Numbered from the stretch's first letter, positions 2,351 to 50,269 are shown. The stretch: DNA of 64,000 nt from Gammaproteobacteria bacterium (GCA_002716945.1 PBCF01000002.1:414953-478952); one strand, 5' to 3'. Made by a program: numbers and translations. Notes: a model not told the origin generated them from the letters alone.

Positions 2351-3328
2351 TCAAGATTTAATTTTTTCTAAGTAAATTATTCCTTGGGTTTTAGTAATCT
2401 TGATTGTTTTGTATTCAAAAAGTGGGTGTGAATCATTCTTGGCTTTGACAACACTCTTTAAGATTTCATGGATTTGATTATTATATAGCGAGACATTGGT
2501 TTGAGTTTTTATCCACTCATGTAGTAATGAGGGTTGAATATTAATATCTTCTGCAATTAATTTTGCTGATAATAATTCATTAGAATTATTATCATTATAT
2601 AATTTAATAATTTTTGATTGCATATACTCTTTTGCTAGATAAGATTTTATTTTTTGTTGTTGAATATTGTTTGACATAATTTTATTTAAACTTTTCCATC
2701 GATTGTTTAATAATGGTAAAACCTTATTTCTAATATAATTCCTATCAAAATCATTTAAATTATTAGTAATATCATCAATATATTCAACTTTATTATCAGT
2801 AGAATAGTTTTTAATAATTGATTTATCTAATTTAAGCAGTGGTCTTGCAATAGGTTTAGAGTTTATGTATGAGAATATATCCATACAACTTAATCCACTA
2901 GGACTAGATCCTCTCATAAGTCTTAAAAAAAATGTTTCTACTTGATCGTCAAAATGATGTGCAGTCAATATAAATTCATCATCTTTTACTTCATCAGTTA
3001 TCAATTTATAACGTTTTTCACGTAGTTTTTCTTCTACATTGCTAGAACCATTTAAATGTATATCACCTGTTATATAGGCAACATTATATTTTTTAAAAAT
3101 ATTAACACAATGATTAAAATAATCTAAGGAATTATTATTTAAATGATGATTGATATGAATACATCTTATGTTGATGTGATAATCTTCTTTTAAGTTGTTT
3201 AATGCATGTAATAATACACTAGAATCTATTCCGCCACTAAATGCTAATAGAAATTTTTTTATATTAATATTTTTTAAAAAATTTACTAATTCATTCTTAA
3301 CTATTTTCGTCGACGTTGTAATCTCCAT
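2351..3328 (-). CDS. tilS: tRNA(Ile)-lysidine synthetase.
   Basis: PP-loop motif SGGIDSS near the N-terminus. Conserved position downstream of accA. Short form of 325 aa. The called start overlaps the accA 3' end by 32 nt, so the true start may differ. Confidence 0.8.
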   Translation of the reverse strand: MEITTSTKIVKNELVNFLKNINIKKFLLAFSGGIDSSVLLHALNNLKEDYHINIRCIHINHHLNNNSLDYFNHCVNIFKKYNVAYITGDIHLNGSSNVEEKLREKRYKLITDEVKDDEFILTAHHFDDQVETFFLRLMRGSSPSGLSCMDIFSYINSKPIARPLLKLDKSIIKNYSTDNKVEYIDDITNNLNDFDRNYIRNKVLPLLNNRWKSLNKIMSNNIQQQKIKSYLAKEYMQSKIIKLYNDNNSNELLSAKLIAEDINIQPSLLHEWIKTQTNVSLYNNQIHEILKSVVKAKNDSHPLFEYKTIKITKTQGIIYLEKIKS

Positions 3329-4307: not shown

Positions 4308-7300
4308 CTATTGATATTTAACAAGAATATTTTCTTTTCCTAATAAATCCCTTAAATTATTGATTAAAGATGTTGATGGTGTAACATGCCAATCATTATC
4401 TAATTCTTTCATAGTTAAAAGATGTCCCTCACTTATATATTTTATAGATAACGGACAACTTCCATGTTTATACGGCTCTAATATATGAACTATTTTCTTT
4501 AATAAATCATTATTAAGTGCATTAGATTCTAAAAGTAATTCTATCTTTTTTGAATATTTTAATCTTGCAGTTTCTATATCAAATATTCTTGTAGCTTTAA
4601 AAGATAGTTGATTATCAAAATCATCCAAGGTAATTGTTCCAGTAAAGAATAATATATGATCTTCATGTATCATGCTTTTATATTTTTCATAAACATCATC
4701 ATAAACAACTATCTGCAATCTAGAGGTTGAATCATCTACCATTAATATATACATAAATTTGTCTTTACCGGATCTCTGACGTCTGATGTTTGTTATGACG
4801 CCAGTTATAGTAGAATGTTCTTCGGTATTTGAATCTATTTCATTTGAATTAATTTTTTCATAATAGTGTTTTATATTTTTAACTGACATCTCATCTATTT
4901 CATCGCTAAACTCTTGTATGGGGTGTCCTGTTAGATAAAATCCGATAACTTTCTTTTCTGAAGAAAATAATTTTAATCTATCTGAAGAACTTAAATTAGT
5001 ATCTTTTTTTGCTTGATTTATAGAGATGACATTAGAATTGACAATTTCCTTTGAATTATTTGAAAATAATTCTTTTTGTCCTGAAGCTTGTATATCTTGT
5101 TTGTTTTGGCCGAATGAGATAGCTTTATCAATTAAATTAATTAATAAATTTCTATTAGCGTTAAATTCATCAAAACTGCCTGAATATATTAATGATTCTA
5201 AAGTTCCAGTGTTAACAATATTCGAAGATATTCTTTCGCAGAAATCAAATATATTTAAAAATGAACCGTTTTTATTTCTTTCTTCAATAATATGTGCAAC
5301 TGCCGTAGCTCCAACACCTTTAATTGCACCAAGCCCAAACAGAATATTATTGTCATTAACAGTTGTAAAATCAAAGTTTGATTCATTTATATCTGGTTGT
5401 TTAACTTTTATATTAATTTCTGAACAAGCATGTACCAAGTTAATTATTTTATCAGTATTATCCATATTTGAAGATAAGCATGCAGCCAAAAACTCTGCCG
5501 GAAAATATGTTTTTAGATATGCTGTTTGATATGCAAGATATGCATATGCTACAGAATGTGATTTATTAAAACCATAACCTGCAAATTTCTCCATTTTAGA
5601 AAATATAGAATGAGCAACATTAGATGATATACCTTTTTTTTTGGCACCATTGAGAAATTTTATTCTATGTGTTTCCATTTCTTTTTTCTTTTTCTTACCC
5701 ATTGCTCTTCTTAATAAATCCGCTTCGCCTAGTGTATAGCCTGCTAAGGATCTTGATATCTCCATTACTTGTTCTTGATATAAAATAAGTCCATAGGTGC
5801 TAGATAATATAGTTTGTAAAAGATCATGCTCATATTGAATTTCTTTTCCATGTTTATTGCTTATAAAATCATCAACCATGTTAGTTCCTAATGGGCCTGG
5901 TCTGTATAATGCCACCAAAGCTACTATGTCATTAAAGCAATCTGGTTTCATCCTACCCATATATCTTCTAATTCCGTAAGATTCAGATTGGAAAACACCT
6001 GTTGTTTGTTTGTTTTGGAATAAATTAAAAACTTTTTTATCATTAAAATTTATTTTGTCAATGTGAAAATCTACATGATCAGATTTATTTTTTATCGCTT
6101 TTACTGTTTTATTTATAACTGTTAAGGTCCTTAATCCTAAAATATCAAATTTAACCAGACCAAGTTTTTCTATATCATCTTTATCAAGCTGTGTGACTAG
6201 TTCATCACTTTCTTCAATTCTATATAATGGTAAAAATCTATTTATTTTATCGGGTGTTATAACAATTCCTGCAGCGTGTTTACCAGCATTTGCTGGCAAG
6301 CCTTCTAATTTTTTTGAAGTATCAATTAAATGCTTTATATCTTTATTAGATGTATATTCTTTTTGTAAATCTTTATTTTCCGCTAAAGCTTCATCAATTG
6401 TTATACCAACTGGTAAAGCTGGAATTTGTTTTGCGATTCTATCTACAAAAGTATAAGCAAGGTCTTGAACGCGACCAACATCTCTAATAACACGTCTTGC
6501 AGATAAAGAATTAAAAGTAATTATTTGTGATACTTTGCTTTCGCCATATACTTCAATAATATGATCAATAACTTTTTGGCGATTCAACATACAGAAATCT
6601 ATATCAAAATCAGGAAGAGATTTTCTCTCGATATTCAAAAATCTTTCGAAAAGTAAATCATATTTTACTGGATCGATCGTTGTTATGCCTAACGCATATG
6701 CTACCAATGATCCTGCGCCAGATCCTCTTCCAGGGCCAACTGGTATTGAATTCTTTTTAGACCATGAAATAAATTCTTGTACAATCAAAAAATAATCTGT
6801 AAATTTCATCTCTTGTATAACATTTATTTCTTTTTGAAGTCTATCTATATAATTCTCTCTATTTTTAATTTTTTTAATATCTAAAATAGTCTTCAGACCT
6901 TCCATCGCTAGTTTAGAGAAATATTCATTATTATTCATATCTTTTGGCGATACAAATGATGGTAGATAATAATTTGATGTATCAATATGTAAATTACACT
7001 TCCTAGTAATATGACTTGCATTTTCAATGGCATCAGGAATATCAGAAAATAATTTATCCATATCAGTGTTTGATTTGAAGTACTGTTGATCAGAAAACTC
7101 TGTTTGTTTATTTCTATCATCAAGTTTTATTTTTCTGTTTATACAAACTTTGGTTTCATTTGTTTCAAAATCTTCTGAATTCATAAACAAAACATCATTA
7201 CTAGCAACAATTGGTAAATTTAGATCGTCTGCTATATTAATTATATGATTATTATAAATGTCCTCATTCAATCTAGATGTCCTTTCTATTTCACAATACA

Positions 7301-7793
7301 GTCTATCTTTATAGAATTCAGAAATTAATTGTATATCCTTTTTAATAATATCTATTTTTTCTGTTAAAAGATTTCTACCCAATAAACCATTTCTCCCACC
7401 AGTTAGCATTATTAGGCCTTGATTTAATTCGCATATTTTATTGATTGTTGTTGATGGTTTTTGATTTGCCTGTTTATTTGTATGCGCTTCTGTGATTAAT
7501 TTAATTAAATTATTATATCCGTCTATATTCTTGCACAATAGAACTATATTAGGAAAATATGAGTGATTATAATTTGTTGTAATAGGTATTTCACAACCAA
7601 TAATTGGTTTAATTTTTTTTTCTATACATTTCTGATAAAATTTTATAGCATTAGAAATATTTGAATGATCTGTAATAGCTAAACTTGAAATTTTGTTTGT
7701 CTTGGCATAATCAATTAGTTTATCAATTTTTATAATACCACTATCTAATGAATATGATGTATGTAAGTGTAGATGTATAAATTCATTCTTCAT
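4308..7793 (-). CDS. dnaE: DNA polymerase III alpha subunit.
   Basis: 1161 aa. PHP domain at the N-terminus (HLHLHTSYSLDSG), polymerase core motifs (GPGRGSGAGSLVAYALGIT, KFDILGLRTL) and the OB-fold region. Confidence 0.97.
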   Translation of the reverse strand: MKNEFIHLHLHTSYSLDSGIIKIDKLIDYAKTNKISSLAITDHSNISNAIKFYQKCIEKKIKPIIGCEIPITTNYNHSYFPNIVLLCKNIDGYNNLIKLITEAHTNKQANQKPSTTINKICELNQGLIMLTGGRNGLLGRNLLTEKIDIIKKDIQLISEFYKDRLYCEIERTSRLNEDIYNNHIINIADDLNLPIVASNDVLFMNSEDFETNETKVCINRKIKLDDRNKQTEFSDQQYFKSNTDMDKLFSDIPDAIENASHITRKCNLHIDTSNYYLPSFVSPKDMNNNEYFSKLAMEGLKTILDIKKIKNRENYIDRLQKEINVIQEMKFTDYFLIVQEFISWSKKNSIPVGPGRGSGAGSLVAYALGITTIDPVKYDLLFERFLNIERKSLPDFDIDFCMLNRQKVIDHIIEVYGESKVSQIITFNSLSARRVIRDVGRVQDLAYTFVDRIAKQIPALPVGITIDEALAENKDLQKEYTSNKDIKHLIDTSKKLEGLPANAGKHAAGIVITPDKINRFLPLYRIEESDELVTQLDKDDIEKLGLVKFDILGLRTLTVINKTVKAIKNKSDHVDFHIDKINFNDKKVFNLFQNKQTTGVFQSESYGIRRYMGRMKPDCFNDIVALVALYRPGPLGTNMVDDFISNKHGKEIQYEHDLLQTILSSTYGLILYQEQVMEISRSLAGYTLGEADLLRRAMGKKKKKEMETHRIKFLNGAKKKGISSNVAHSIFSKMEKFAGYGFNKSHSVAYAYLAYQTAYLKTYFPAEFLAACLSSNMDNTDKIINLVHACSEINIKVKQPDINESNFDFTTVNDNNILFGLGAIKGVGATAVAHIIEERNKNGSFLNIFDFCERISSNIVNTGTLESLIYSGSFDEFNANRNLLINLIDKAISFGQNKQDIQASGQKELFSNNSKEIVNSNVISINQAKKDTNLSSSDRLKLFSSEKKVIGFYLTGHPIQEFSDEIDEMSVKNIKHYYEKINSNEIDSNTEEHSTITGVITNIRRQRSGKDKFMYILMVDDSTSRLQIVVYDDVYEKYKSMIHEDHILFFTGTITLDDFDNQLSFKATRIFDIETARLKYSKKIELLLESNALNNDLLKKIVHILEPYKHGSCPLSIKYISEGHLLTMKELDNDWHVTPSTSLINNLRDLLGKENILVKYQ

Positions 7794-8359
7794 AAAGCTA
7801 TAGTATGTAAAGGTGAAAATGTCATTCTATGATGAATACAAGGTCCAAAAATATCTAATGCAATCTTATGATCTTTGGTAGGATAACCCTTATTCTTATC
7901 AAAACCATATACGTTGATTTGTGAGTGAATGAACTTCATTTCATTATCTCGAATTACCTTAGCTACAATAGATGCTGCCGATATAACTGGAATAGTTTTA
8001 TCGCCTTTTACAAAACACTTTGTGGGTACCTCGATTTTAGGAGCATATAGGCCATCAATATATATCAATTCAGGTATAACAGATAAATTGTCAAATGCCC
8101 TTTTCATTGATAATAGTGTAGCATTATGAATATTAATTTTGTCAATTTCTTGGTTTGATGAAAAACCAATGCCTAAAGCAAGACAGTTACTAACAATGTA
8201 TCTAGACAGTTTTACTCTCCTAGATTCGCTGATACTTTTAGAGTCAACCAATTGGCTATCATCGATGCCTCTGTCTAGTATCAACGCTACAGAAACTACT
8301 GGGCCAGCCAAGCAACCTCTTCCTACTTCATCAATACCAGCTAAAAGTTTGCTTGTCAT
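7790..8359 (-). CDS. rnhB: Ribonuclease HII.
   Basis: 189 aa. N-terminal GIDEVGRGCLAGPVV catalytic motif. ATGA overlap with dnaE. Confidence 0.9.
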   Translation of the reverse strand: MTSKLLAGIDEVGRGCLAGPVVSVALILDRGIDDSQLVDSKSISESRRVKLSRYIVSNCLALGIGFSSNQEIDKINIHNATLLSMKRAFDNLSVIPELIYIDGLYAPKIEVPTKCFVKGDKTIPVISAASIVAKVIRDNEMKFIHSQINVYGFDKNKGYPTKDHKIALDIFGPCIHHRMTFSPLHTIAL

Positions 8360-8426
8360 CGGTAAAACACTATATAATTGAACATTATTATAAATATATC
8401 AAAAATTTTGGGCCTATGCCGTTGAA

Positions 8427-9338
8427 ATGAGAAAAAATAAGATTAATATTGGAATAATTGGGCTCGGATATCTTGGAAAATATCACTATGAAAAATATCA
8501 TAAAAACCCATTATGTAATATAGAATGGGTTGTAGATATTAATAAAAAGAACCTAAATTATGTATCTCCACAGTATAAAAAAACAACTAATTATAAGGAA
8601 ATAATCAAAGATGTTGATGCTGTATCTATTGTAACCCCTACAAAAAATCATTTTCCAATATCAAAATATTTTCTAGAAAAGAATATACATGTTTTGTTGG
8701 AAAAACCTATGACAGATACGATAGAACAGGCAAATAAGTTAATAAAAATTGCAAAAACCAATAAACTTATACTTCAAATTGGACACCTTGAAAGATTTAA
8801 TCCAGTAATGGATACATTAAATAGACAAATAAAGAATCCCATGTTTATAGAAGGTCATCGTTTATCAAAGTTTAATGTTAGATCAACAGATGTAAATGTA
8901 ATATATGATCTAATGATTCATGATATTGATATAATGAAATCATTAGTTAATAGTAATATTAAAAAGATTTCTGCGTTTGGGAAGAAAATATTAACTAAAT
9001 CTACTGATATTGCAAATGTTAGAATTGAATTTAGTAATAAGTGTATAGCTAATTTGACTGCAAGCAGGATAAGTCAAAAGAATGAAAGAAAACTAAGGAT
9101 TTTTCAGAAAGATACATACCTATCTGTTGATTTTATGAATCATGAAATAAAAAAATATACAAAGGATAAAATAAAATTATTTAAGCGTGAAGATTTTAAG
9201 TTTGATAAATCTGATGCTTTAAAAATTGAAATTAATAATTTTATTCTTTCATGTTTAGGTAAAGAAAAACCTTTAGTAAATGGAGAGATGGGAAAAGAGG
9301 CGTTACTTATAGCTCATAAAATTTCTAAATTATTATGA
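8427..9338 (+). CDS. gnnA: Gfo/Idh/MocA-family NAD-dependent oxidoreductase. Probably UDP-GlcNAc 3-dehydrogenase (GnnA-like).
   Basis: 303 aa. N-terminal Rossmann GxGxxG (IGIIGLGYLG) and the family EKP motif (LLEKPM). Translationally coupled to a DegT aminotransferase and lpxB, beside lpxA. Confidence 0.6.
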   Translation: MRKNKINIGIIGLGYLGKYHYEKYHKNPLCNIEWVVDINKKNLNYVSPQYKKTTNYKEIIKDVDAVSIVTPTKNHFPISKYFLEKNIHVLLEKPMTDTIEQANKLIKIAKTNKLILQIGHLERFNPVMDTLNRQIKNPMFIEGHRLSKFNVRSTDVNVIYDLMIHDIDIMKSLVNSNIKKISAFGKKILTKSTDIANVRIEFSNKCIANLTASRISQKNERKLRIFQKDTYLSVDFMNHEIKKYTKDKIKLFKREDFKFDKSDALKIEINNFILSCLGKEKPLVNGEMGKEALLIAHKISKLL

Positions 9339-10438
9339 ATAAAAACAAATTAAAAATGTTTGATCTAACTAATCAATATTCAAAACTTAAACCAAAAATA
9401 AGTACATCCGTACAACAAGTATTAGAAAGTGGTCAGTATATATTAGGTCAGAATGTTATAAAATTTGAAAAAAATTTGAGCAAATATATTGGTTCTAAAT
9501 ATTCTATATCATGTAATTCTGGAACTGATGCGTTAATTTTATCTTTGATGTGTTTGGGCATAACAAGAGAAGATGAAGTTATAACATCTCCATTTACATA
9601 TTTTGCAACTGCTGAAGCTATAACATTATGTGGAGCTAAACCAATATTTATAGACATTGATAAAGATAGCTTTAATATAAATCCAGAAAAAATATCTCAA
9701 GCTATAACAAAAAAGACTAAAGCTATAATAATAGTACATATTTTTGGTCAGCCAGCAAATATGATTGAAATCAAAAAAATATGTAAAAAATTTAACATTA
9801 AAATAATCGAAGATTGTGCTCAATCTATTGGATCGAAAATTAAATCAATGAAGACCGGGGCTTTTGGTGATTTTGGTTGTTTTAGTTTTTTCCCTACAAA
9901 AAATTTAGGTTGCGCTGGTGATGGTGGAGCAATAGTAACATCTAATAAATCATTTGCCGAAAAACTCTTTAAATTAAGAAACCATGGTGGTGTCAACAGA
10001 AATAACCATGAATTCATCGGTATGAATAGTAGGTTAGATGAAATTCAGGCTGCTATTTTAAATGTTAAATTAAAGCATCTTGACTCATTTAACAGAAAAA
10101 GAAATGAGATTGCAAAGTTATATAAAAGACTAATAAACAACAAAAACATAAAATTACCATATCATAGTAAAAATAATTATCATGTTTATAATCTATTCAC
10201 TTTGCAGGTAAAAAATAGAGACAAATTTTGTAAGTATTTAAATAAAAATAAAATACCTTTTGGAATATATTATCCTACACCTTTATATAAACAAAAATCT
10301 CTAAAAAAGATCTGTTCACCAAAAAAACTGCCTATTGTTGAAAAAATCACAAAAGAGTGTGTATCTATACCAATGTTTCCGGAATTAGATTATGATTCTA
10401 TTAAATATATTTCAAATATAATTAACAAATTTAAGTAA
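9335..10438 (+). CDS. gnnB: DegT/DnrJ/EryC1/StrS-family PLP-dependent aminotransferase. Probably UDP-3-keto-GlcNAc aminotransferase (GnnB-like).
   Basis: 367 aa. Typical family N-terminus (GQYILGQNV..FE) and PLP-lysine region (SFFPTKNLG). ATGA overlap with the upstream oxidoreductase and TAATG overlap with lpxB. Confidence 0.6.
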   Translation: MNKNKLKMFDLTNQYSKLKPKISTSVQQVLESGQYILGQNVIKFEKNLSKYIGSKYSISCNSGTDALILSLMCLGITREDEVITSPFTYFATAEAITLCGAKPIFIDIDKDSFNINPEKISQAITKKTKAIIIVHIFGQPANMIEIKKICKKFNIKIIEDCAQSIGSKIKSMKTGAFGDFGCFSFFPTKNLGCAGDGGAIVTSNKSFAEKLFKLRNHGGVNRNNHEFIGMNSRLDEIQAAILNVKLKHLDSFNRKRNEIAKLYKRLINNKNIKLPYHSKNNYHVYNLFTLQVKNRDKFCKYLNKNKIPFGIYYPTPLYKQKSLKKICSPKKLPIVEKITKECVSIPMFPELDYDSIKYISNIINKFK

Positions 10439-11571
10439 TGGCGAAAAAACATATATTTATAATTGCAGGTGAGTCATCAGGCGATCAACATGCAGCGAGT
10501 TATGTAAGAGAGCATAAAAAAATAAATAAAGATGTTTATTTTTCTGCAATTGGACAACAAGATTTACTAAATGAAGGTGTAGATTTAATATTTAATTCAG
10601 AACTTATATCGGTGGTTGGTATAATCGAAGTGATTTCAAAATATTATCAAATTAATTCTGCAATAAAAAAAGCTTATAAACATATAATTGACAAAAAACC
10701 AGATTTAATAATCTTAGTTGATTATGTAGAGTTTAATTTGAAAATTGCTAGATTTGCAAAACAATATGAAATACCTGTGCTTTTCTATGTAGCTCCACAA
10801 GTCTGGGCGTGGCGTGAAAAAAGAATTAAAAAAATTATTGAAGTTGTAGATCATTTAGCTGTTGTATTTCCGTTTGAAGAAAAATTATTTAGAAAATATA
10901 TGCAGAATGTTACATATGTAGGACATCCATTGGCAGATAATAAGAAACTTATTAAATCCAATACAGATTATGATGAAAAAGAAATCTCAGTTGGTATTTT
11001 TCCAGGAAGTAGAGAATCAGAGATAAAAAATAACTTATTTAGTATGATTGATTGTATACGAACTAATAATAAAGATTCGAATATTAAAGATGAAATAAAA
11101 ATATTTTATTCAAATGATACAGCAAAAAAATTACTTCTTAAGTTATTGCCAAATGATTGGTCGTCTTTATTAAGAGATGGAAAAAATATTAATGAAATAA
11201 AAAAATGTAAAAAAGCTATAACTGCTTCAGGAACGATTACTTTAGAGTTAGCTATAATAAATATTCCTATGGTTATAATGTATCGATTATCACCATTAAC
11301 ATATTTTATTATGAAAAATATGATCAAACTTAAATATATTGGTTTAGTTAATTTAATCTTAGGTGAATCTCTAGGTTCTAAACCATTGGTTAAAGAATTT
11401 ATTCAACCTGATTATACTGATGAAGTTGAGATAATGGTTGAATTACAAAAAATAGATAAAGATGAAAATTATAGAAAAAGTTTTGAAGATGGATATTCTG
11501 AAATTAGGAATATTTTAAAACCTGGTGCTGCCACTAAAGTAGCCGAAATAGCAAATACAATGTTAAAATAA
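10438..11571 (+). CDS. lpxB: Lipid-A-disaccharide synthase.
   Basis: 377 aa. N-terminal IAGESSGDQHAA motif typical of LpxB. On the plus strand, inverted relative to the rest of the lpx cluster. Confidence 0.9.
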   Translation: MAKKHIFIIAGESSGDQHAASYVREHKKINKDVYFSAIGQQDLLNEGVDLIFNSELISVVGIIEVISKYYQINSAIKKAYKHIIDKKPDLIILVDYVEFNLKIARFAKQYEIPVLFYVAPQVWAWREKRIKKIIEVVDHLAVVFPFEEKLFRKYMQNVTYVGHPLADNKKLIKSNTDYDEKEISVGIFPGSRESEIKNNLFSMIDCIRTNNKDSNIKDEIKIFYSNDTAKKLLLKLLPNDWSSLLRDGKNINEIKKCKKAITASGTITLELAIINIPMVIMYRLSPLTYFIMKNMIKLKYIGLVNLILGESLGSKPLVKEFIQPDYTDEVEIMVELQKIDKDENYRKSFEDGYSEIRNILKPGAATKVAEIANTMLK

Positions 11572-12342
11572 TTACCTTGTAACACCTCTTTTGCTATCTT
11601 CTATAAATTTAACAAATTTATTTACCTGTGGATATTGATAACCAAGTTCAGCAAATGATTTATGCGCATTATCTCTAGTGTTTTTATTTTTTATGAAAAT
11701 TTTAAAAGTCTTTTCTAAAGCTTGAATTAAATCAGAATCAAACCCTTTTCTCTTTAATCCGGCACTATTAATTTTATAAGCTTGCGCATGATTACCAGCA
11801 ACTAAAGTATATGGAGTAACATCCATAGATATTACAGTACCTAATCCTGTAAATGCATATTCTCCTACCAAACAATATTGATGTACTAAGGTAAAACCAC
11901 CCAGAGTTACGTGATCAAAAATTTCTACATGCCCAGCCAAAGAAGCAGCATTTGAAAAAATACAATGGTTATGCACGATACAGTCATGCGCGACATGCGT
12001 ATATGCCATAAATAAATTATTAGAACCAATAGAAGTGTAATTTATACCTGCAGATGTTCCACGATTAAGAGTACAATATTCTCTAAAAACATTATTATTT
12101 CCAATTTTTAGTGTTGATTCTTCCCCTCCATACTTGAGATCTTGTGGGATTTCACCTATAGATGAAAACTGATAAAAATGATTTCCTTCGCCAATTATCG
12201 TGTTTTTTTTTATGACTACATGATTTTCTATTATTGTATTTGGTCCTATTTCAACATTTTGATCTATAACTGAATAAGCACCAACTTTTACTGATGAATC
12301 CAAATTAGCATTTTTATGAATTATTGCAGTTTTATGTATCAT
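11572..12342 (-). CDS. lpxA: UDP-N-acetylglucosamine O-acyltransferase.
   Basis: 256 aa hexapeptide-repeat protein in the conserved fabZ-lpxA position. Its stop codon directly abuts the lpxB stop. Confidence 0.9.
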   Translation of the reverse strand: MIHKTAIIHKNANLDSSVKVGAYSVIDQNVEIGPNTIIENHVVIKKNTIIGEGNHFYQFSSIGEIPQDLKYGGEESTLKIGNNNVFREYCTLNRGTSAGINYTSIGSNNLFMAYTHVAHDCIVHNHCIFSNAASLAGHVEIFDHVTLGGFTLVHQYCLVGEYAFTGLGTVISMDVTPYTLVAGNHAQAYKINSAGLKRKGFDSDLIQALEKTFKIFIKNKNTRDNAHKSFAELGYQYPQVNKFVKFIEDSKRGVTR

Positions 12343-12781
12343 TTTTACTTCGAACTGCTCCTAATAACTCTGCAGTACATACCAACTCATCATTTACTTT
12401 GCATTCAGATGTAAATTTATGCACATCTTTTTTACTCTGAATTAAATTAACTTTTATCATTAATACATCACCTGGATAAACTGGTTTCTTAAATCTTGCT
12501 TTATCTATTCCAACAAAATAGTATAGTAAATCTTTAGGTCTATCATTACTTTTGAAATCTAAAAGCGCTGTAGCTTGCGCCATAGCTTCTAGAATTAATA
12601 CAGCTGGGAAAACTGGATAATCTGGAAAATGTCCTTGGAAAAAAGGCTCATTGATAGTAACATTTTTTTGTGCAATTAAAAAATCATGTTTTTTAAGATC
12701 TATTATTTTATCTATTAGTAGAAATGGGTATCTATGTGGCAGTAAATTTCTAATATCGTTCTCATTCATTATTTTCTCCAT
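12332..12781 (-). CDS. fabZ: 3-hydroxyacyl-ACP dehydratase.
   Basis: 149 aa hotdog fold. LLPHRYPFLLIDKI and FFQGHFP motifs. Confidence 0.93.
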   Translation of the reverse strand: MEKIMNENDIRNLLPHRYPFLLIDKIIDLKKHDFLIAQKNVTINEPFFQGHFPDYPVFPAVLILEAMAQATALLDFKSNDRPKDLLYYFVGIDKARFKKPVYPGDVLMIKVNLIQSKKDVHKFTSECKVNDELVCTAELLGAVRSKNDT

Positions 12782-13730
12782 CGTTTTTAGTTAGAACTAA
12801 TTTTGCAATTTTATCTAAATTCTTGTAGCGAGCTTGATTCCTTCTCCAAGATGCAGCTGGTTCTATGGTTGTTCCTGATGCGTATTGTCCAGGCTTATTA
12901 ATAGATTTAGTGACCATTGCCATTCCATGTATGTGGACGTTATCAACAATATTGATGTGACCATTTATACCGGTTCCACCACCAATTGTACAATTTTTAC
13001 CAATTTTTGTACTTCCTGCAATTCCAACACACGCCGCTATAGCTGTGTTTTCACCAATGATAACATTGTGCGCTATATGTACTTGATTATCTATTTTTAC
13101 ATTTGATTCTATAATTGTACTATCAATGGCAGCTTTATCTATGACTGTATTAGAACCAATTTCAACATTCGAATCAATTATTACATTTCCAATTTGTGGA
13201 ACTTTTTTCCAACTATCTTTATGTAAAACAAGTCCAAATCCATCTGATCCAATAATTACTCCTGGATGAATTATTACATTATCAGCTATAAACGTTCCAT
13301 CATTAATAACTACATTTGGAAATATTTTACAATTTTTTCCTATATGTATATCTTCTCCCAAAACAACGTTCTTGCCAATATCAGATGTAGAATGGATAAT
13401 TTGATTAGAATTCTTTTTTAAAGATAATAAACCATTTTTTTTATTTTTAAGACAATAATTTACAAACTGTGAAAATAAATATAAAGGTTCCTTGGAAATA
13501 ATACATGGTTTAGTGATCTTTTTTGCCAACAATGAACTAGTTATTAATATAGATATATCAGATTTATTTATAGAATTGATATTTTTTGAATTTAGCAAAT
13601 AAGATAATCCATTCTTTTTTGGATTATCAATACTGCATATATTGTCAATTTCTACTTTCTTTGTGGTAGTTGAAATACAACCTAAAAGGCTACAAATTTT
13701 TTTTAGTGAATATTTTTTTTCAAGCTGCAT
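12762..13730 (-). CDS. lpxD: UDP-3-O-acylglucosamine N-acyltransferase.
   Basis: 322 aa. Left-handed beta-helix hexapeptide repeats. Position between skp and fabZ. Confidence 0.9.
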   Translation of the reverse strand: MQLEKKYSLKKICSLLGCISTTTKKVEIDNICSIDNPKKNGLSYLLNSKNINSINKSDISILITSSLLAKKITKPCIISKEPLYLFSQFVNYCLKNKKNGLLSLKKNSNQIIHSTSDIGKNVVLGEDIHIGKNCKIFPNVVINDGTFIADNVIIHPGVIIGSDGFGLVLHKDSWKKVPQIGNVIIDSNVEIGSNTVIDKAAIDSTIIESNVKIDNQVHIAHNVIIGENTAIAACVGIAGSTKIGKNCTIGGGTGINGHINIVDNVHIHGMAMVTKSINKPGQYASGTTIEPAASWRRNQARYKNLDKIAKLVLTKNDGENNE

Positions 13731-14242
13731 TATTGTAATTCTGAAATTATAGCTTGAGTTATATCAATATATGATTTTGCATATAGTGTAGTTCCATCTG
13801 CTCTTATAATAATATCAAAATTATTTTTTTCCGCATATTTTTTAATAGTTGTTTCAACAATATTTCTAATTCTTGATAATTCTTGTCCTTGTACTTTTTG
13901 CAATTCTTTATTAAATTTTTCTTGTTTTGATCTAAAATCTTTCTCAACTTTTTGTATCTTTTTTACAAGCTTTTCTTTTTCATTAGATGCCATAATTTTT
14001 TCATTTTTAAGATACTTATCGTTTAATGAATTCCATTCTTTTTCTAATGATGCTAATTTCTTTGCTCTAGGATCAAACTGTTTTTTTATTTTAGATTGTG
14101 AGTCTCTGTATATAGGTATTTCTTTAAATAATCTATCTAAATTAACTATTCCCATTTTCATTTCAGCTTGTGATGTTCCTGGTATCACAAAATATAATAA
14201 TAAGATTAAACATATTTGAAAAATTCTTTCTCTATTTATCAT
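13730..14242 (-). CDS. skp: Periplasmic chaperone Skp (OmpH).
   Basis: 170 aa. Signal peptide followed by a lysine-rich coiled-coil. Conserved bamA-skp-lpxD position. Confidence 0.8.
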   Translation of the reverse strand: MINRERIFQICLILLLYFVIPGTSQAEMKMGIVNLDRLFKEIPIYRDSQSKIKKQFDPRAKKLASLEKEWNSLNDKYLKNEKIMASNEKEKLVKKIQKVEKDFRSKQEKFNKELQKVQGQELSRIRNIVETTIKKYAEKNNFDIIIRADGTTLYAKSYIDITQAIISELQ

Positions 14243-16654
14243 TTAAAAACTTCCTCCTAAGGAAAATACAACTGGTTGTGTATCATCTCCATCTTTCTTT
14301 TTAAAGGCATTTACAAAACCAACAGTAACATTTCCTATAGGTGTTAAAAATGTACCCTGTATTCCATAACTTGCTCTTATTTCATTGTATTCGAAGTCAT
14401 TGATATCTTCAAATACGTTACCAATGTCCATAAATAATGATACTCTTATATTTCTTTTATCTTGAGCTATTACAGGTGGAGGAGGAAATATCCAATCAAA
14501 TTGAGAAAGCGCTACAAAATCCCCTCCGACAGCATCACATGTTTTTGCAGTGCAGGACAGCGGGCCTGTACCTTCATAAGTCAAAGGCCCCAAACTGGCA
14601 CCATCAAAACCCCTGAGGGATTTTACTCCACCAGCAAAAAACTTACTATGAAAAGGTACCGAAGTTGTCCCAAATAATCCCGCTCCTATACCAACTGTTG
14701 GTTTTATACGAAATACTGTATTCCAATCAAAAAGACCAAAAGTAGGAAAAATATAAGGATAATTATATTCGCCTTTATAGCTTGCAGTGACATATGATGC
14801 CCCACTCAATGGAAAAAAAGCTTCGAGAGAATATAAGTGGTCACTACCTCTATTAGCAAACACAGTTCTATCCCTCGAATCACTTCTGTAATTAGTTTTT
14901 GCACTTAAACCAAATGACGTTGAACCATGATCTGCTAAATGATGTGTAACAACAATTGGCGAACCAATAGTCTTTGTGTATTTTGTAAATAAGATATCAT
15001 AACCAAATCCAAATGAATCAGTTTCAGAAACTGGTGACACATAGAAAACACCACCACCAAATGTATCTGCAACATATGAAGCAGTTGATGTGCTTGATAC
15101 ATCCGTTTGACTGTAAATCATATTTACACTTTTACTTATACCATCTGGTGTAAAATATGGATTAGTATTAATTAATTTAAAAGATGTAGTTACTTGGCTT
15201 TTTGCAGCTTCAAGAGAAACATTGTTTCCTTTCCCTAAAAAATTGTCCTGTTGTACTTTTATGTTAAATAAGGCTCCATTAGTATCAGACCAACCAGCAC
15301 CAACTTTAAACTCACCGGATGTTGTTTCTTCAATATTAAAAGTTACATCAACTTGATCCTTTGTTCCTTCTACTGGTGATTTTTTAATTTCAACATTTTT
15401 AACAAATTTTAATCTTTGTAGACGTATTTTTGATCTTTCAATCTTAGAATTAGAATGCAAAGAAGATTCGAACTGTCTAATTTCTCTTCTATAGACTTCA
15501 TCATTTGTTTTTTCATTCCCTCTAATATTAACTCTACGCACCATTGTTTGTTGTCCAGGATTAACTCTAAATTCTATATCAACAATCTTTGTTTCATCAT
15601 CTATTTTTGGCACAGTAATAATTTCAGGAAATGCATATCCCGAGTCACCTAATAGGAAAGAAATAGAGTTCTTTGATAATTCTATGACTTCTCTAGAAAA
15701 ATTATTTCCAGGTTTTATTAGTGATAGTATTGTGTCTTTTAATAATTGTTCTGAAATTATAGTATTACCAAATAATGTAATATCACCAAATTCGTAGACA
15801 TCGCCCTCTTCAATACTAATTGAGAGATATATATCTTTATTGTCATTTGATAAGTTAACTTGATTAGATAATATTTTAAATCTAACAAATCCTCTATTTA
15901 AATAAAAATCCTGAATTTTATTTAAATCAGATTCAAGGATTGTTTTTGAATATGTATCTCTACTAGACCAAAATTCAAACCAATATTTCGTTCCAGCATC
16001 CATCAAAGAAATAAGTTGATCATAACTATAAGATTTATTTCCAATGATAGTTATCCCTTTAATTGTTGAAGGATCGCCCTCATCTATATCTAACTCTAGT
16101 GAAATTAATTGATTTTCAAGTTCTGTAACAGCACTTTTAATTGTTATATTATATCTTCCATAATCATAATAAATACGTAATAATTCTTGTTCAACTTTAT
16201 CAAATACATTTTTATCAAATGGTCTAGACCTAGCAATACCAACATTATCTAATGCATTCATAATATCTTCAGATTCAATTATTGTATTGCCAGTAAGTTT
16301 AATCTCTGTCACTATAGGTTTTTCAACAACACGTATAATCAAATTATTAAACTCTAATAATACTGCTATATCATCAAAGTATTTAGTAGCATATAACTTT
16401 TTAATAATGTCCTTGCTTAACTCCGGAGTATAAATATCTCCAATATTAATCTCTGCATAAGAAAGGATTGTGGGTACACTAACGCGTAAATTTCCCTGTA
16501 CAATAATATTATTTATTTTTACTTCTTCATCAGCCTCTACGGTTTTTACAATATTAAATTTTAATATTTCTGATGATTCATTAAAGGGTTTTGATGATTG
16601 TAGAGATAATACAAATAGGAGTATTAGAATTGTTAATATATATTCAGATTTCAT
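14243..16654 (-). CDS. bamA: Outer membrane protein assembly factor BamA.
   Basis: 803 aa. Signal peptide, POTRA repeats, C-terminal beta-barrel ending in an aromatic residue. Conserved position after rseP. Confidence 0.92.
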   Translation of the reverse strand: MKSEYILTILILLFVLSLQSSKPFNESSEILKFNIVKTVEADEEVKINNIIVQGNLRVSVPTILSYAEINIGDIYTPELSKDIIKKLYATKYFDDIAVLLEFNNLIIRVVEKPIVTEIKLTGNTIIESEDIMNALDNVGIARSRPFDKNVFDKVEQELLRIYYDYGRYNITIKSAVTELENQLISLELDIDEGDPSTIKGITIIGNKSYSYDQLISLMDAGTKYWFEFWSSRDTYSKTILESDLNKIQDFYLNRGFVRFKILSNQVNLSNDNKDIYLSISIEEGDVYEFGDITLFGNTIISEQLLKDTILSLIKPGNNFSREVIELSKNSISFLLGDSGYAFPEIITVPKIDDETKIVDIEFRVNPGQQTMVRRVNIRGNEKTNDEVYRREIRQFESSLHSNSKIERSKIRLQRLKFVKNVEIKKSPVEGTKDQVDVTFNIEETTSGEFKVGAGWSDTNGALFNIKVQQDNFLGKGNNVSLEAAKSQVTTSFKLINTNPYFTPDGISKSVNMIYSQTDVSSTSTASYVADTFGGGVFYVSPVSETDSFGFGYDILFTKYTKTIGSPIVVTHHLADHGSTSFGLSAKTNYRSDSRDRTVFANRGSDHLYSLEAFFPLSGASYVTASYKGEYNYPYIFPTFGLFDWNTVFRIKPTVGIGAGLFGTTSVPFHSKFFAGGVKSLRGFDGASLGPLTYEGTGPLSCTAKTCDAVGGDFVALSQFDWIFPPPPVIAQDKRNIRVSLFMDIGNVFEDINDFEYNEIRASYGIQGTFLTPIGNVTVGFVNAFKKKDGDDTQPVVFSLGGSF

Positions 16655-20086: not shown

Positions 20087-20813
20087 TTTTATCGAGAGAA
20101 ATATCCTTGTTTGATAATGCTCCAAATTTCCTATTAATATTTTGGTACCATTTTATGGCCTTATCTAACTCATTTTCATTAAAATCCGGCCATAAACAAT
20201 CAGTAAAATATAACTCAGTATAAGCATGTTGCCATAACAAAAAGTTGCTTAGTCTTTGCTCGCCACCTGTTCTTATAAGTAAATCTGGAAATGATGAATC
20301 TAAAGTTAAAGATTTTTCTATGTTTTCACAATTTATATCATCTATATTGAAATCTTTTTTATTTAAAATAATGGATTGTACAGCATTAACAATATCCCAT
20401 TTGCCTCCATAATTTAACGCAAGGTTTAATTTTAATCCTGTATTATTAGTTGTTAAAGTTTCTGCGTTTTTTATTTTACTGATTAACTTTGAGTTAAACT
20501 TACTTAAATTGCCAATAAAATGAAGTTGAATATTATTATCATTTAAATTATTTATATTAGAATCTATAGCTTCGTTGAATAGATTAATAAGAAAATTTAC
20601 TTCATATTCAGGTCTTTTCCAATTCTCACTGCTGAAAGCAAATAATGTAAGCTCATTAATTTGTCTAGTAGTACATGCTTTCACAATTTTATTTATAGCA
20701 GAAATTCCAGATCTATGTCCAAATGCTCTTGGCATATTTCTATCTAATGCCCATCTACCATTGCCATCCATTATAATAGATACGTGATTTATTTTCTTAG
20801 TTGTCATAGTCAA
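20079..20813 (-). CDS. uppS: Undecaprenyl pyrophosphate synthase.
   Basis: 244 aa. HVSIIMDGNGRWA and FAFSSENWKRP motifs. Confidence 0.93.
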   Translation of the reverse strand: MTMTTKKINHVSIIMDGNGRWALDRNMPRAFGHRSGISAINKIVKACTTRQINELTLFAFSSENWKRPEYEVNFLINLFNEAIDSNINNLNDNNIQLHFIGNLSKFNSKLISKIKNAETLTTNNTGLKLNLALNYGGKWDIVNAVQSIILNKKDFNIDDINCENIEKSLTLDSSFPDLLIRTGGEQRLSNFLLWQHAYTELYFTDCLWPDFNENELDKAIKWYQNINRKFGALSNKDISLDKNA

Positions 20814-21367
20814 ACTTCACTAATCTCAGTATTTTTTTTAGCTATTATCTCATCACACTTAAGTATATAGCTATCAGTTAATTCTTGTATTTCTATAATA
20901 TAATCTCTTTCAAAATCTTTAGATATTTTTTTGTCTTTTTCTAAATTATTAATTGATGTGTTTGTATTTCTTCTGATATTACGTAATGTTACTTTTGTAT
21001 TTTCAGCTTCTTTTTTTACAATTTTTATGAGCTCATCTCTCCTTTCTTGTGTTAAAGGGGGTATCTTTATGTGTATGTTAAGTCCATTAACTGTAGGTGT
21101 TATACCAAGATCTGATTCATTGATTGCTTTTTCAATTGATGAAACTGCATTCTTGTCCCAGACATTTAATGATATTGTTGTCGCATCAGTAACCGATATA
21201 TTCGATAATTGTTTTATAGGCGTAAGTGTATCAAAATAATTGGCTTCAATTTGATCTAGCATACTTGGATTTGGTCTACCAGCACGTATTTTGTTTAAAC
21301 TAAGATGTAAGACATCGAGTGCTTTGTTCATTGACACTTCAGTTTCTTTTTTTAAATCCTCAAACAT
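20810..21367 (-). CDS. frr: Ribosome recycling factor.
   Basis: 185 aa with high similarity to Frr. ATGA overlap with uppS. Confidence 0.95.
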   Translation of the reverse strand: MFEDLKKETEVSMNKALDVLHLSLNKIRAGRPNPSMLDQIEANYFDTLTPIKQLSNISVTDATTISLNVWDKNAVSSIEKAINESDLGITPTVNGLNIHIKIPPLTQERRDELIKIVKKEAENTKVTLRNIRRNTNTSINNLEKDKKISKDFERDYIIEIQELTDSYILKCDEIIAKKNTEISEV

Positions 21368-21377
21368 TGGAATTAAT

Positions 21378-22259
21378 TTATTTTATTTGACTATAAACTT
21401 CTTTCGCAAAATCATCATTATTTTTTTCAATACCATCACCCAACTGATATCTATAATAGTTAACGATTCTGTTATCATTTAATATTTTCTTAAGATTTGT
21501 AGTGCTATCTTTGATAAATGGTTGATTTAATAATGTATTTTCAATAATAAATTTCTTAATTTTACCTTCTAATATATTTCTTTTGATATCTTCTTTTTTG
21601 TCTATTTTTTCTAATTCTTTTTTATATATCTCTTTTTCAGACGACAGTATTTCAGAATCAATTGTGTCTTGATCTAGTGCAATGGGATTCATAGCAACAA
21701 TCTGCATACATACATCTTTACTTAAGTTTTCATCTTTACGGTCTAATACTACCATAGCTCCTATTTTATCATTATGTACATATCCATTGATATAGTTATC
21801 AGAAGTCATTTTTACAATAAATCTTCTTATGCGTATATTCTCACCTATCTTAGAAATCAAATCAGTTCGTTGGTTATCAATTTCTTGAAATATTGAATTA
21901 CTATTAGTAACAAGTGATGAAAAATCATTGCATTCAGTATCTTCTGTAAAATCAAATGAGATAATTTTATTGCTAATATCCATAACAAAATCTTTAAAGT
22001 CATCACTTCTAGCAACAAAATCAGTTTCAGAGTTAATTTCTATAAGCATAGATTTTTTGTCTTTGTGAATAAATTGAACTGATCCTTCTGCAGCTATTCT
22101 AATTGATTTTTTATCTGCTATAACACCTTGCTCAGAACGCATTAATTTTACTGCTTCATCGACGTTACCAGAAGAAGCTTCAAGATATTTTTTACAGTCT
22201 AGCATTCCAGCGCCAGTTATATCTCTCAATTCTTTTAATGCGTCTAAATTATCACCCAT
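21378..22259 (-). CDS. tsf: Elongation factor Ts.
   Basis: 293 aa. N-terminal LRDITGAGMLDCKKYL and the duplicated EF-Ts core. Confidence 0.93.
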   Translation of the reverse strand: MGDNLDALKELRDITGAGMLDCKKYLEASSGNVDEAVKLMRSEQGVIADKKSIRIAAEGSVQFIHKDKKSMLIEINSETDFVARSDDFKDFVMDISNKIISFDFTEDTECNDFSSLVTNSNSIFQEIDNQRTDLISKIGENIRIRRFIVKMTSDNYINGYVHNDKIGAMVVLDRKDENLSKDVCMQIVAMNPIALDQDTIDSEILSSEKEIYKKELEKIDKKEDIKRNILEGKIKKFIIENTLLNQPFIKDSTTNLKKILNDNRIVNYYRYQLGDGIEKNNDDFAKEVYSQIK

Positions 22260-27743: not shown

Positions 27744-27751
27744 ATATTTTC

Positions 27752-42350: not shown

Positions 42351-43094
42351 ATGTCTACATTATTCATTTCAGATTTACATCTTGATCAAAGTAGACCTGA
42401 TGTTATTGATTTCTTTGTTAACTATCTTACAAGTATAGATAAAAACATTACATCAATTTATATTTTAGGAGATTTAGTTGAATACTGGGTAGGCGATGAT
42501 GACCCTGCAATTGGCTTGGAGAAAACATTTGATACATTACATCGAGTCTCTAAAGTCATCCCAATATATTTTATGCAAGGAAATAGAGATTTTATGATGT
42601 CAGAAAATTTTTGTTCAAAATATGGAATAAAATTGCTCAATGATCCAACAATAATTAGCTTGAATGAAAAGAAAATATTATTGATGCATGGAGACACTTT
42701 ATGTACTGATGATATTAAATATCAAGAATACAGAAAAATGGTGAGATCTGATAAATGGCAAACTGCAATGAAAACTAAAAGTCTAGAAGAAAGATTATCA
42801 ATTGCCAATGAATTAAGACAAAAGAGTATGCTTGAAACTAAAGATAAAAGTGCTGACATTATGGATGTAAACCAAAATGCAGTTAATGATGCTTTTATCA
42901 AATATGAGGCTGATATATTAATACATGGACATACACATCGAGCAAATATACATAATATAAAAGTTAATAATAAAAAAGTTCAAAGAATAGTATTGGGGGA
43001 TTGGTATCAATCAGCTTTTTTTCTCATATACGATAATGGAAAGACTATTATAAATAAACAAAGTTTAATGTTTAAAAAAGATCGTAACTCTTAA
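42351..43094 (+). CDS. lpxH: UDP-2,3-diacylglucosamine pyrophosphatase.
   Basis: 247 aa. Calcineurin-like motifs (FISDLHL, GDLVEYWVGDDD, GNRDF, MHGDTLCTDD, HGHTHR) closely matching LpxH. Confidence 0.9.
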   Translation: MSTLFISDLHLDQSRPDVIDFFVNYLTSIDKNITSIYILGDLVEYWVGDDDPAIGLEKTFDTLHRVSKVIPIYFMQGNRDFMMSENFCSKYGIKLLNDPTIISLNEKKILLMHGDTLCTDDIKYQEYRKMVRSDKWQTAMKTKSLEERLSIANELRQKSMLETKDKSADIMDVNQNAVNDAFIKYEADILIHGHTHRANIHNIKVNNKKVQRIVLGDWYQSAFFLIYDNGKTIINKQSLMFKKDRNS

Positions 43095-49279: not shown

Positions 49280-49639
49280 TTATTGACAGTTTTTATTAGA
49301 TAATCGACTATTTTTATCCTTGGTATCGCATTCTTCTACAAGATTATCATTTGTAACATTATAGGTTTGAGGGTTTTGATTAATAATAGTTTCAGGTTTT
49401 TTAGAAAATTCAACTGGAGTAACTGTGGCAAATTTTATAAAGAATAATGTAACAATAGCAACAGATGCTGCTGTTGCAAATTGCATAAAGAATCCAACAT
49501 TCTTTTGATCGGAACTTTTTTTAATATTATTAATGACATTATGTGAAAAGTTTTTAGAAAGATAACGAGGATAATCCTTTTTTAAAAAAGATTTTATAAA
49601 ATATAATATTTCTGTTTGTTTAATTTTATCTCTATCCAT
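49280..49639 (-). CDS. Putative membrane-anchored anti-sigma-E factor (short RseA/MucA-like). Identity uncertain.
   Basis: 119 aa. Cytoplasmic N-terminus of about 50 aa, a single TM helix (FMQFATAASVAIVTLFFIKF), short periplasmic tail. Start overlaps the rpoE stop. No clear sequence similarity to RseA seen by eye. Confidence 0.4.
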   Translation of the reverse strand: MDRDKIKQTEILYFIKSFLKKDYPRYLSKNFSHNVINNIKKSSDQKNVGFFMQFATAASVAIVTLFFIKFATVTPVEFSKKPETIINQNPQTYNVTNDNLVEECDTKDKNSRLSNKNCQ

Positions 49640-50204: not shown

Positions 50205-50269
50205 AGTTGCATATCTCAAGTATATGTATTTCTATAAAATCGTATATAATAATATTATTTTCATTATAT

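Follow-up and report, generated by a model that had tools for sequence, protein, structure and literature searches.

A 64,000-nucleotide stretch of DNA from an uncultured marine gammaproteobacterium (GCA_002716945.1, PBCF01000002.1:414953-478952; hereafter the window) carries three plus-strand genes in the middle of a conserved, otherwise minus-strand envelope gene cluster. They encode a GnnA-like dehydrogenase, a GnnB-like aminotransferase and the lipid A disaccharide synthase LpxB. The three genes most probably act as a single operon with translational coupling that supplies lipid A synthesis with an aminated sugar nucleotide, so that the lipid A backbone would contain 2,3-diamino-2,3-dideoxyglucose (GlcN3N). 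The identities of the genes, their coupling and their conserved arrangement are direct observations.

The three open reading frames (ORFs) lie on the plus strand at 8427..9338 (303 aa), 9335..10438 (367 aa) and 10438..11571 (377 aa). The first encodes an oxidoreductase of the Gfo/Idh/MocA family that depends on nicotinamide adenine dinucleotide (NAD) and is a predicted 3-dehydrogenase of uridine diphosphate N-acetylglucosamine (UDP-GlcNAc). The second encodes a sugar C3 aminotransferase of the DegT family, dependent on pyridoxal 5'-phosphate (PLP) and predicted to convert UDP-3-keto-GlcNAc to the 3-amino sugar nucleotide UDP-GlcNAc3N, while lpxB is the last gene of the operon. The first two ORFs overlap by 4 nt in the ATGA of ttattATGAataaa at 9335-9338, and the last two by 1 nt in the TAATG of aagTAATGgcg at 10436-10440. 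Reading these junctions directly confirmed the overlapping operon of oxidoreductase, aminotransferase and lpxB that an earlier interpretation made from the DNA alone (the sequence-only reading) had proposed. In ENA, Tara and Logan assemblies, i.e., from several assembly sources, 17 contigs carry an identical protein in the same arrangement, which is therefore not an assembly artefact.

The dehydrogenase matches the Pfam family GFO_IDH_MocA (PF01408, E 4.7e-25) together with the C-terminal domains PF22725 and PF02894. Among all PDB sequences its best match was 7bvj (E 2.2e-48), an entry entitled 'UDP-N-acetylglucosamine 3-dehydrogenase GnnA from Acidithiobacillus ferrooxidans', to which it is 35% identical over 287 aligned residues. 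The next match scored 1.1e-11, and 7bvj was followed by inositol dehydrogenases and by members of the family that are uncharacterised. When 18 clade members were combined into a profile, GnnA again came first, with 2.2e-61 for 7bvj versus 3.1e-24 for the next entry. The AlphaFold2 model of the protein (predicted local distance difference test score 85.6, predicted template modelling score 0.83) was compared with the PDB by Foldseek, and the five GnnA chains of 7bvj and 7bvk came first with template modelling (TM) scores of 0.89-0.91, a root mean square deviation of 2.0-2.3 Å and E values of about 1e-30 to 1e-32 (best 2e-32), versus 4.5e-23 for the next structure. GnnA is thus the top match by sequence, profile and fold, and leads the sequence search by about 37 orders of magnitude, as expected if the GnnA assignment of the sequence-only reading holds. 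That reading had taken a best match to WbpB-type enzymes as evidence to the contrary, and this did not occur for the dehydrogenase: judged by entry names and PDB codes, WbpB and WlbA chains were absent from the best 60 sequence matches (E up to 3e-3, from a search repeated with an E-value limit of 10), the best 60 profile matches or the best 50 fold matches. The best match in NCBIfam was the archaeal UDP-GlcNAc 3-dehydrogenase NF040723, at 200 bits.

The motifs GIIGLGYLG (residues 9-17), EKP (92-94) and DLMIH (161-165, DxxxH) are invariant in the 18 clade members; in this superfamily the Rossmann, EKP and DxxxH motifs are regarded as the catalytic ones. GenBank already names this protein UDP-N-acetyl-D-glucosamine dehydrogenase (MBH44341.1), and the public names of the clade dehydrogenases clash, being 'UDP-N-acetyl-D-glucosamine dehydrogenase', 'scyllo-inositol 2-dehydrogenase' or 'Gfo/Idh/MocA family oxidoreductase'. 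Of the characterised Gfo/Idh/MocA enzymes, GnnA is the nearest to the window protein, whose substrate is predicted by homology to be UDP-GlcNAc, which would be oxidised at the 3-OH with NAD+.

The aminotransferase belongs to DegT_DnrJ_EryC1 (PF01041, E 8.8e-115). Its K189, in the motif PTKNLG, is the lysine that forms the Schiff base with PLP; it aligns with the lysine mutated in the K184A entry 5u21 and is invariant in the clade alignment. WbpE likewise has a K185A entry, 3nys. The top solved relative is 7b0d, a 'sugar transaminase' from Archaeoglobus veneficus with 45-46% identity, and the other top relatives by sequence, profile and fold are HCAN_0200, QdtB, WbpE, Pcryo_0616, WlaRG and DesV. 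These relatives are nearly equal, with 40-46% identity and TM scores of 0.90-0.93; profile scores were 435 bits for 7b0d and about 370 bits for WbpE. The 7b0d entry names no substrate; the rest of the top 23 Foldseek matches and of the top profile matches are nucleotide-sugar 3-aminotransferases, a regiochemistry that the entry titles give for some of them. Enzymes acting at C4 (perosamine synthase, ArnB and PseC-like proteins) scored lower than the C3 enzymes. As the nearest described relatives all act at C3, the assignment as a C3 sugar aminotransferase is well supported by these comparisons.

Sequence cannot separate a GnnB role of this protein from the role of WbpE or QdtB, and the same applies to the nucleotide and the C6 substituent. 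The substrate is predicted from context, because the gene is translationally coupled to a GnnA homologue and to lpxB, and because this linkage recurs in several phyla. The GnnB assignment of the sequence-only reading therefore stands as regards the PLP lysine and the C3-aminotransferase branch, while the choice of GnnB over the equally near WbpE and QdtB types comes from gene context. In a neighbour-joining tree the lpx-linked DegT proteins (the window clade, locus L090, Nitrospirota-labelled loci and locus L007) split from 7b0d, 7n63, QdtB and WlaRG in 215 of 300 bootstraps, which is moderate. GenBank names the DegT gene product a hypothetical protein, and JGI names its homologues either dTDP-4-amino-4,6-dideoxygalactose transaminase or UDP-2-acetamido-2-deoxy-ribo-hexuluronate aminotransferase.

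The third gene is plainly lpxB, since its product matches Pfam LpxB over residues 6-366 (E 8.2e-81) and scores 223.3 bits with TIGR00215 against a cutoff of 190.25. At a guanine plus cytosine (G+C) content of 28%, ORFs of more than 300 codons with such hidden Markov model scores are far beyond chance.

The route from UDP-GlcNAc to lipid A can be laid out as a prediction. The GnnA-like dehydrogenase would oxidise the 3-OH of UDP-GlcNAc with NAD+, and the GnnB-like aminotransferase, presumably with glutamate as amino donor, would turn the 3-keto intermediate into UDP-GlcNAc3N. LpxA would then N-acylate position 3, placing an amide where an ester would otherwise be, after which LpxC would deacetylate, LpxD would N-acylate and LpxH would cleave part of the product, as with UDP-GlcNAc. 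LpxB would finally join both halves into a backbone containing GlcN3N, and with lpxB on a shared transcript, formation of the disaccharide would be linked to the availability of the aminated sugar nucleotide.

The GnnA/GnnB route is established in A. ferrooxidans (Sweet, Ribeiro and Raetz, 2004, as described in papers citing it). The lipid A of A. ferrooxidans and Campylobacter jejuni obtains its GlcN3N through GnnA and GnnB, whose homologues are routinely used to predict this sugar. Backbones made entirely of GlcN3N are found in Legionella and rhizobia, and hybrid backbones of GlcN3N and glucosamine (GlcN) in Campylobacter, Capnocytophaga and flavobacteria. Zunongwangia has mostly a GlcN-GlcN backbone with a minor hybrid, in a paper whose scope did not include its gnnA/gnnB genes. 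As carriers or presumed carriers of gnnA/gnnB make all-GlcN3N, hybrid or mostly GlcN backbones, the four amide-linked acyl chains put forward in the sequence-only reading are not established and are one possible outcome among several, although our results do support the GlcN3N backbone itself. Whether the backbone is all-diamino or hybrid is not readable from sequence.

The acyltransferases that would act on the aminated precursor are encoded directly beyond the operon. LpxA, the first acyltransferase of the pathway (11572..12342, minus strand; NF003657, 326 bits against a cutoff of 226), FabZ, the dehydratase of 3-hydroxyacyl-acyl carrier protein (12332..12781, minus strand; NF000582, 187 against 113), and LpxD, the N-acyltransferase acting at position 2 (12762..13730, minus strand; TIGR01853, 265 against 242.5), are canonical and above their NCBIfam cutoffs. 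The UDP-2,3-diacylglucosamine diphosphatase gene lpxH is also in the window, on the plus strand at 42351..43094 (NF003743, 281 bits against 134; TIGR01854, 260 against 190). LpxA is 42% identical to its E. coli counterpart and keeps the E. coli positions H122, H125, H144, H160, Q73, D74, K76, Q161, N198 and R204. Its residue 66 is a proline at the position of E. coli N72, beside Q73, in 12 of the 12 GnnA-linked LpxAs aligned (with no control set), and its residue 167 is a leucine at the hydrocarbon-ruler position G173 of E. coli, which is found in the marine clade only. Ruler specificity is known from Met169 of Pseudomonas aeruginosa LpxA, and by analogy the leucine might set a shorter primary acyl chain.

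The sequence-only reading had made it a condition that LpxA accept the aminated sugar. E. coli LpxA reportedly accepts both UDP-GlcNAc and UDP-GlcNAc3N, and the selectivity of Leptospira LpxA is reportedly due to how a backbone carbonyl (Q68) is oriented and not to a side chain. We know of no sequence signature in LpxA for amine acceptance. With selectivity reportedly exerted through a backbone carbonyl and with an E. coli enzyme reported as unselective, the inspection of LpxA residues is not decisive, and the condition is a weak one.

The arrangement is widely kept. In eight marine gammaproteobacterial loci, i.e., the window and seven relatives, dnaE and rnhB on one strand are followed by gnnA, gnnB and lpxB on the other and then by lpxA, fabZ, lpxD, skp and bamA on the first strand again. 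The genes tilS and accA also precede this block, and the placement was the same in every relative whose neighbourhood was viewed. DnaE identity to the window is 79% for L005, 59-61% for L085 and L087, 52-53% for L095, L096 and L097, and 45% for L090, which is about as distant from the window as E. coli is (DnaE 41%). In L090, the block proteins (GnnA 46%, GnnB 49%, LpxB 38%) and the flanking proteins (LpxA 48%, LpxD 44%, RnhB 45%) show identities in a comparable range. In trees with five loci of the lineage (the window, L005, L085, L087 and L090), monophyly was recovered in 289 of 300 bootstraps for DegT, 188 of 200 for LpxB and 200 of 200 for LpxA. Since the block has diverged like its flanks and the trees are monophyletic, the arrangement is, on these comparisons, old and has been passed on vertically within a broad marine gammaproteobacterial lineage of low G+C content. 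About 8000 homologue candidates from ocean metagenomes (Tara and others) were scored, and the best 120 are all at least 62% identical.

In L097, a 946-kb 'pilon' contig, both rnhB (4473-5035) and lpxB (7076-8210) are broken into two ORFs, and disruptions also affect skp and bamA (10291-11494). These breaks resemble frameshift errors from long-read assembly rather than pseudogenes.

Linkage between gnnA and lpxB extends beyond this lineage. Among 80 species-representative loci with a GnnA homologue (35-81% identity), 69 had enough downstream sequence, and in 25 of these lpxB follows the GnnA homologue on the same strand within 2.6 kb, with a DegT gene between the two in 12 of the 25. By the phylum labels in the record titles, Nitrospirota loci have the order gnnA-gnnB-lpxB, Desulfobacterota loci lpxD-fabZ-lpxA-x-gnnA-lpxB, and Omnitrophota loci gnnA-lpxB. 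In L007 (2932-7795), a low-G+C anaerobe with DUF134 and Fer4/ParA genes nearby, a KdsA-like gene is divergent from gnnA-gnnB-lpxB. Approached from LpxB, three of the five nearest clusters at 50% identity whose context was examined sit directly after a Gfo/Idh/MocA gene. Repeated linkage in unrelated genomes that are not especially compact would be difficult to account for if this dehydrogenase subfamily did not serve lipid A synthesis.

Several points weigh against this conclusion. For this organism it is drawn from sequence, predicted fold and context, the identity to A. ferrooxidans GnnA is only 35%, and the 200 bits with NF040723 are below the equivalog cutoff of 450. The aminotransferase is about equally near to WbpE and Pcryo_0616, which belong to the pathway from UDP-N-acetylglucosaminuronic acid (UDP-GlcNAcA), and to enzymes of dTDP-linked sugars, and the solved enzymes with which it was compared include no characterised GnnB. 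The split of the lpx-linked DegT proteins has only 72% bootstrap support in a tree with four solved enzymes and with WbpE outside it. The genes lpxC and lpxK lie outside the window, and carriage of gnnA/gnnB does not fix the backbone, as the case of Zunongwangia illustrates.

Alternatively, the pair might make UDP-GlcNAc3N or a related 3-amino sugar such as GlcNAc3NAc for an O-antigen, a capsule or a protein glycan, with the adjacency of lpxB due to genome compaction. The best NCBIfam match and the best solved relative of the aminotransferase are indeed both archaeal, and archaea have no lipid A. In addition, the genome is extremely compact, with abutting stops and overlapping genes, so neighbours need not share a function. 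However, genes for an acetyltransferase, a glycosyltransferase or a flippase are absent from the operon, in which the pair is accompanied by lpxB alone, while the linkage of gnnA, with or without gnnB, to lpxB in 25 of the 69 loci, and also in L092 and L094, involves unrelated lineages that are not streamlined. As the arrangement is moreover kept down to 45% DnaE identity, we regard a role in surface glycans as improbable.

A second alternative is that the genes are of the WbpB/WbpE type and act on UDP-GlcNAcA toward 2,3-diacetamido-2,3-dideoxy-uronic acids for O-antigen. WbpE and Pcryo_0616 are near-equal top matches of the aminotransferase (40-42% identity, about 370 versus 435 bits), and the automatic JGI name of some clade members, UDP-2-acetamido-2-deoxy-ribo-hexuluronate aminotransferase, points the same way, but the homologues bearing this name that we looked up sit in the same gnnA-gnnB-lpxB block. 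Furthermore, no chain named WbpB or WlbA is among the best matches of the dehydrogenase, for which GnnA comes first in sequence, profile and fold, and no UDP-GlcNAc 6-dehydrogenase, 3-N-acetyltransferase or 2-epimerase was found among the scanned window ORFs (all except a few smaller ones). This makes a uronic acid pathway very improbable. A further alternative is a generic inositol or sugar dehydrogenase with an aminocyclitol-type (scyllo-inosose) aminotransferase, unrelated to the envelope: one GenBank relative is named scyllo-inositol 2-dehydrogenase, 7b0d was deposited as a glutamine--scyllo-inositol transaminase, and the second-tier matches of the oxidoreductase are TIGR04380 (112 bits) and inositol dehydrogenases of the PDB (E 1e-9 to 1e-11). 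Such matches trail GnnA by 30-40 orders of magnitude, TIGR04380 falls far short of its cutoff of 355 bits, the entry title of 7b0d is just 'sugar transaminase', and the operon partner is lpxB; this explanation is likewise very improbable.

The preferred explanation is the synthesis of UDP-GlcNAc3N for lipid A. Among known systems, the window pair shares with GnnA/GnnB of A. ferrooxidans the two enzyme families, their order and the physical linkage to lipid A genes, and GnnA is the nearest solved relative. In A. ferrooxidans, gnnA/gnnB presumably lie within the lpxA-lpxB cluster; certain alphaproteobacteria are described as having them outside the lpx cluster. The window pair differs from the A. 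ferrooxidans system in being translationally fused to lpxB on the strand opposite lpxA and rnhB, with a GnnA of only 35% identity. WbpB/WbpE (WlbA/WlbC) of P. aeruginosa and Bordetella and Pcryo_0616 resemble the pair in carrying out C3 oxidation followed by PLP-dependent transamination on a UDP-N-acetyl-hexosamine, and WbpE and Pcryo_0616 are 40-42% identical to the window aminotransferase with TM scores of 0.90-0.92. In contrast to those systems, the scanned window ORFs include no equivalents of wbpA, wbpD and wbpI, and the operon partner is lpxB. The archaeal enzymes NF040723 and 7b0d, i.e., the best NCBIfam and the best solved matches, respectively, are alike in the first two reactions. 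Archaea, which lack lipid A, use the 3-amino product for N-glycans, whereas the window genes are embedded in a Raetz-pathway cluster and score 200 against 450 bits with the archaeal dehydrogenase family.

Compared with the envelope cluster of E. coli, the window has the same genes in the same relative order on either side of the block, but with two inserted genes and with lpxB on the other strand, in an operon of its own and with a divergent promoter region. The order in E. coli K-12 is bamA-skp-lpxD-fabZ-lpxA-lpxB-rnhB-dnaE-accA, all on one strand, so lpxB truly lies on the opposite strand in the window. On the minus strand, the block is flanked to the left by rnhB, dnaE, accA and tilS and to the right by lpxA, fabZ, lpxD, skp, bamA, rseP, dxr, cdsA, uppS, frr, tsf and rpsB. 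The 'inverted lpxB' of the sequence-only reading is thus correct as to strand, though the gene is perhaps part of an acquired cassette rather than the result of a simple inversion.

The history of LpxB is of interest in this respect. LpxB is 26-28% identical to the E. coli enzyme versus 33-40% to Desulfobacterota-labelled loci (L006-L016 and L089), whereas LpxA, LpxD, FabZ, RnhB and DnaE are 41-51% identical to those of E. coli and at least as near to them as to the Desulfobacterota-labelled loci. In neighbour-joining trees, marine-clade LpxA joins E. coli and LpxB joins non-gammaproteobacterial sequences. More than 150 clusters at 50% identity score at least 198 bits with LpxB in phmmer; E. 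coli LpxB scores 149 bits in BLASTP, which is a different scale. The nearest relatives of GnnA outside the lineage are L007 and Desulfobacterota-labelled loci (47-52%), versus 35% for A. ferrooxidans. The GnnA of L007, at about 52% the nearest of these, nests inside the marine clade in the GnnA tree.

This pattern hints at an ancient acquisition of gnnA-gnnB-lpxB that replaced the native lpxB, or at a divergent LpxB in E. coli. As a single reference in the comparison is labelled gammaproteobacterial and the AT-rich lineage has long branches, acquisition is a lead and not a finding. No inverted repeats were found at the block borders (8360-8426 and 11571/11572), and those elsewhere were only chance-level AT-rich matches. 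There was no compositional trace of recent transfer either, the G+C content of the block (0.27-0.28) being equal to that of its flanks, and the lack of border repeats and of a G+C difference points against a recent event. The sign changes of GC and AT skew track the coding strand. A different layout is seen in L093 (5269-7936; GCA_054016175.1, GC-45%), where rnhB and lpxB are divergently adjacent and mlaA follows lpxB, with no gnnA or gnnB; lpxB opposite rnhB thus also occurs independently of the aminating genes.

In its furthest form, the acquisition scenario states that a mobile gnnA-gnnB-lpxB cassette from outside the Gammaproteobacteria displaced the native lpxB, at the very site where it lay, in the ancestor of a very abundant low-G+C ocean lineage and committed that lineage to GlcN3N lipid A, with an LpxB subfamily co-adapted to diamino substrates. 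We consider this unlikely. If true, a large share of the Gram-negative biomass of the surface ocean would carry an endotoxin that is resistant to esterases and probably only weakly active on Toll-like receptor 4.

The 67-bp region between rnhB and the gnnA-like gene (8360..8426) probably holds divergent promoters for both units. Two AT-rich spacer blocks, CACTATATA and TATAAATATA.CAAA, are invariant in four relatives with proteins only 59-94% identical, and a TATAAT-like box about 50 nt upstream of the gnnA-like ATG is also present in more distant relatives. The conservation of the blocks and the box fits divergent promoters. A consensus promoter scan gave 35 sites versus 36.9 expected and is uninformative in AT-rich DNA. 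At the other end of the operon, the stop codon of lpxB (TAA, 11569-11571) is immediately followed by that of lpxA (11572-11574, read as TTA on the plus strand), with zero bases between them. A terminator scan, uninformative at 28% G+C, found no terminator-like hairpin anywhere in 7700-12500. With abutting convergent stops and no terminator, the lpxB and lpxA transcripts must run into each other's coding region.

Known already are the GnnA/GnnB route, the prediction of GlcN3N by homology and the GenBank name of the dehydrogenase. What is new is the host, a broad, abundant and uncultured marine gammaproteobacterial lineage, together with the fixed opposite-strand three-gene operon in its envelope cluster, and possibly also the origin of lpxB. 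GlcN3N lipid A has so far been found mainly in Legionella, Leptospira, Campylobacter, rhizobia, Acidithiobacillus and some Bacteroidota. If the prediction is true, amide-linked primary acyl chains would alter the chemical stability of outer-membrane lipids in seawater, their susceptibility to lipases and deacylases, and the biological activity of marine 'endotoxin'. To specialists in lipid A it would be expected biology in a new host and no new mechanism. The present result also corrects generic public annotations in the clade, such as those of the aminotransferase.

The source is a metagenome-assembled genome from Tara Oceans with GenBank proteins MBH44339-MBH44348. The G+C content is 27-30% across nearly the whole window and about 28% overall. 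SAR86 was considered as a name for the lineage but not adopted, since the G+C content reported for SAR86 genomes, 31-40%, is above the roughly 28% of the window.

Among the remaining flanking genes, all on the minus strand, rnhB for RNase HII (7790..8359; NF000595, 209 bits against a cutoff of 167) is divergent from the operon on the left and is followed downstream by dnaE (4308..7793; NF004226, 1310 against 1002). On the right, bamA (14243..16654) is above its NCBIfam cutoff, and skp (13730..14242) is the only flank gene that is not. Further along, tsf (21378-22259) is followed after 10 bp by frr (20810-21367). E. coli has pyrH between the two; in the window it is absent from this position and was not found among the ORFs scanned. 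At only 325 aa, the TilS protein (2351-3328) seems to lack the C-terminal domain: it matches the model of the N-terminal domain, and of the 439 positions of the full-length model it covers only 15-314. TilS of L085 has 335 aa, and those of L087, L095 and L096 have 426-430 aa with a TilS_C domain. An Rfam scan of the window returned tRNAs only, none of them in or near the block.

The window also encodes an ammonium transporter of the marine subtype (920-2188; TIGR03644, 625 bits) and a YejABEF-like ATP-binding cassette importer for peptides with a binding protein of 594 aa (25153-30600), both typical of streamlined ocean heterotrophs. Between a gene for an extracytoplasmic function sigma factor (49632-50219) and a DegP/DegQ-like protease gene (47873-49276) lies an ORF of 119 aa (49280-49639) with no Pfam match, which to judge from its position may encode a very short anti-sigma factor resembling RseA.

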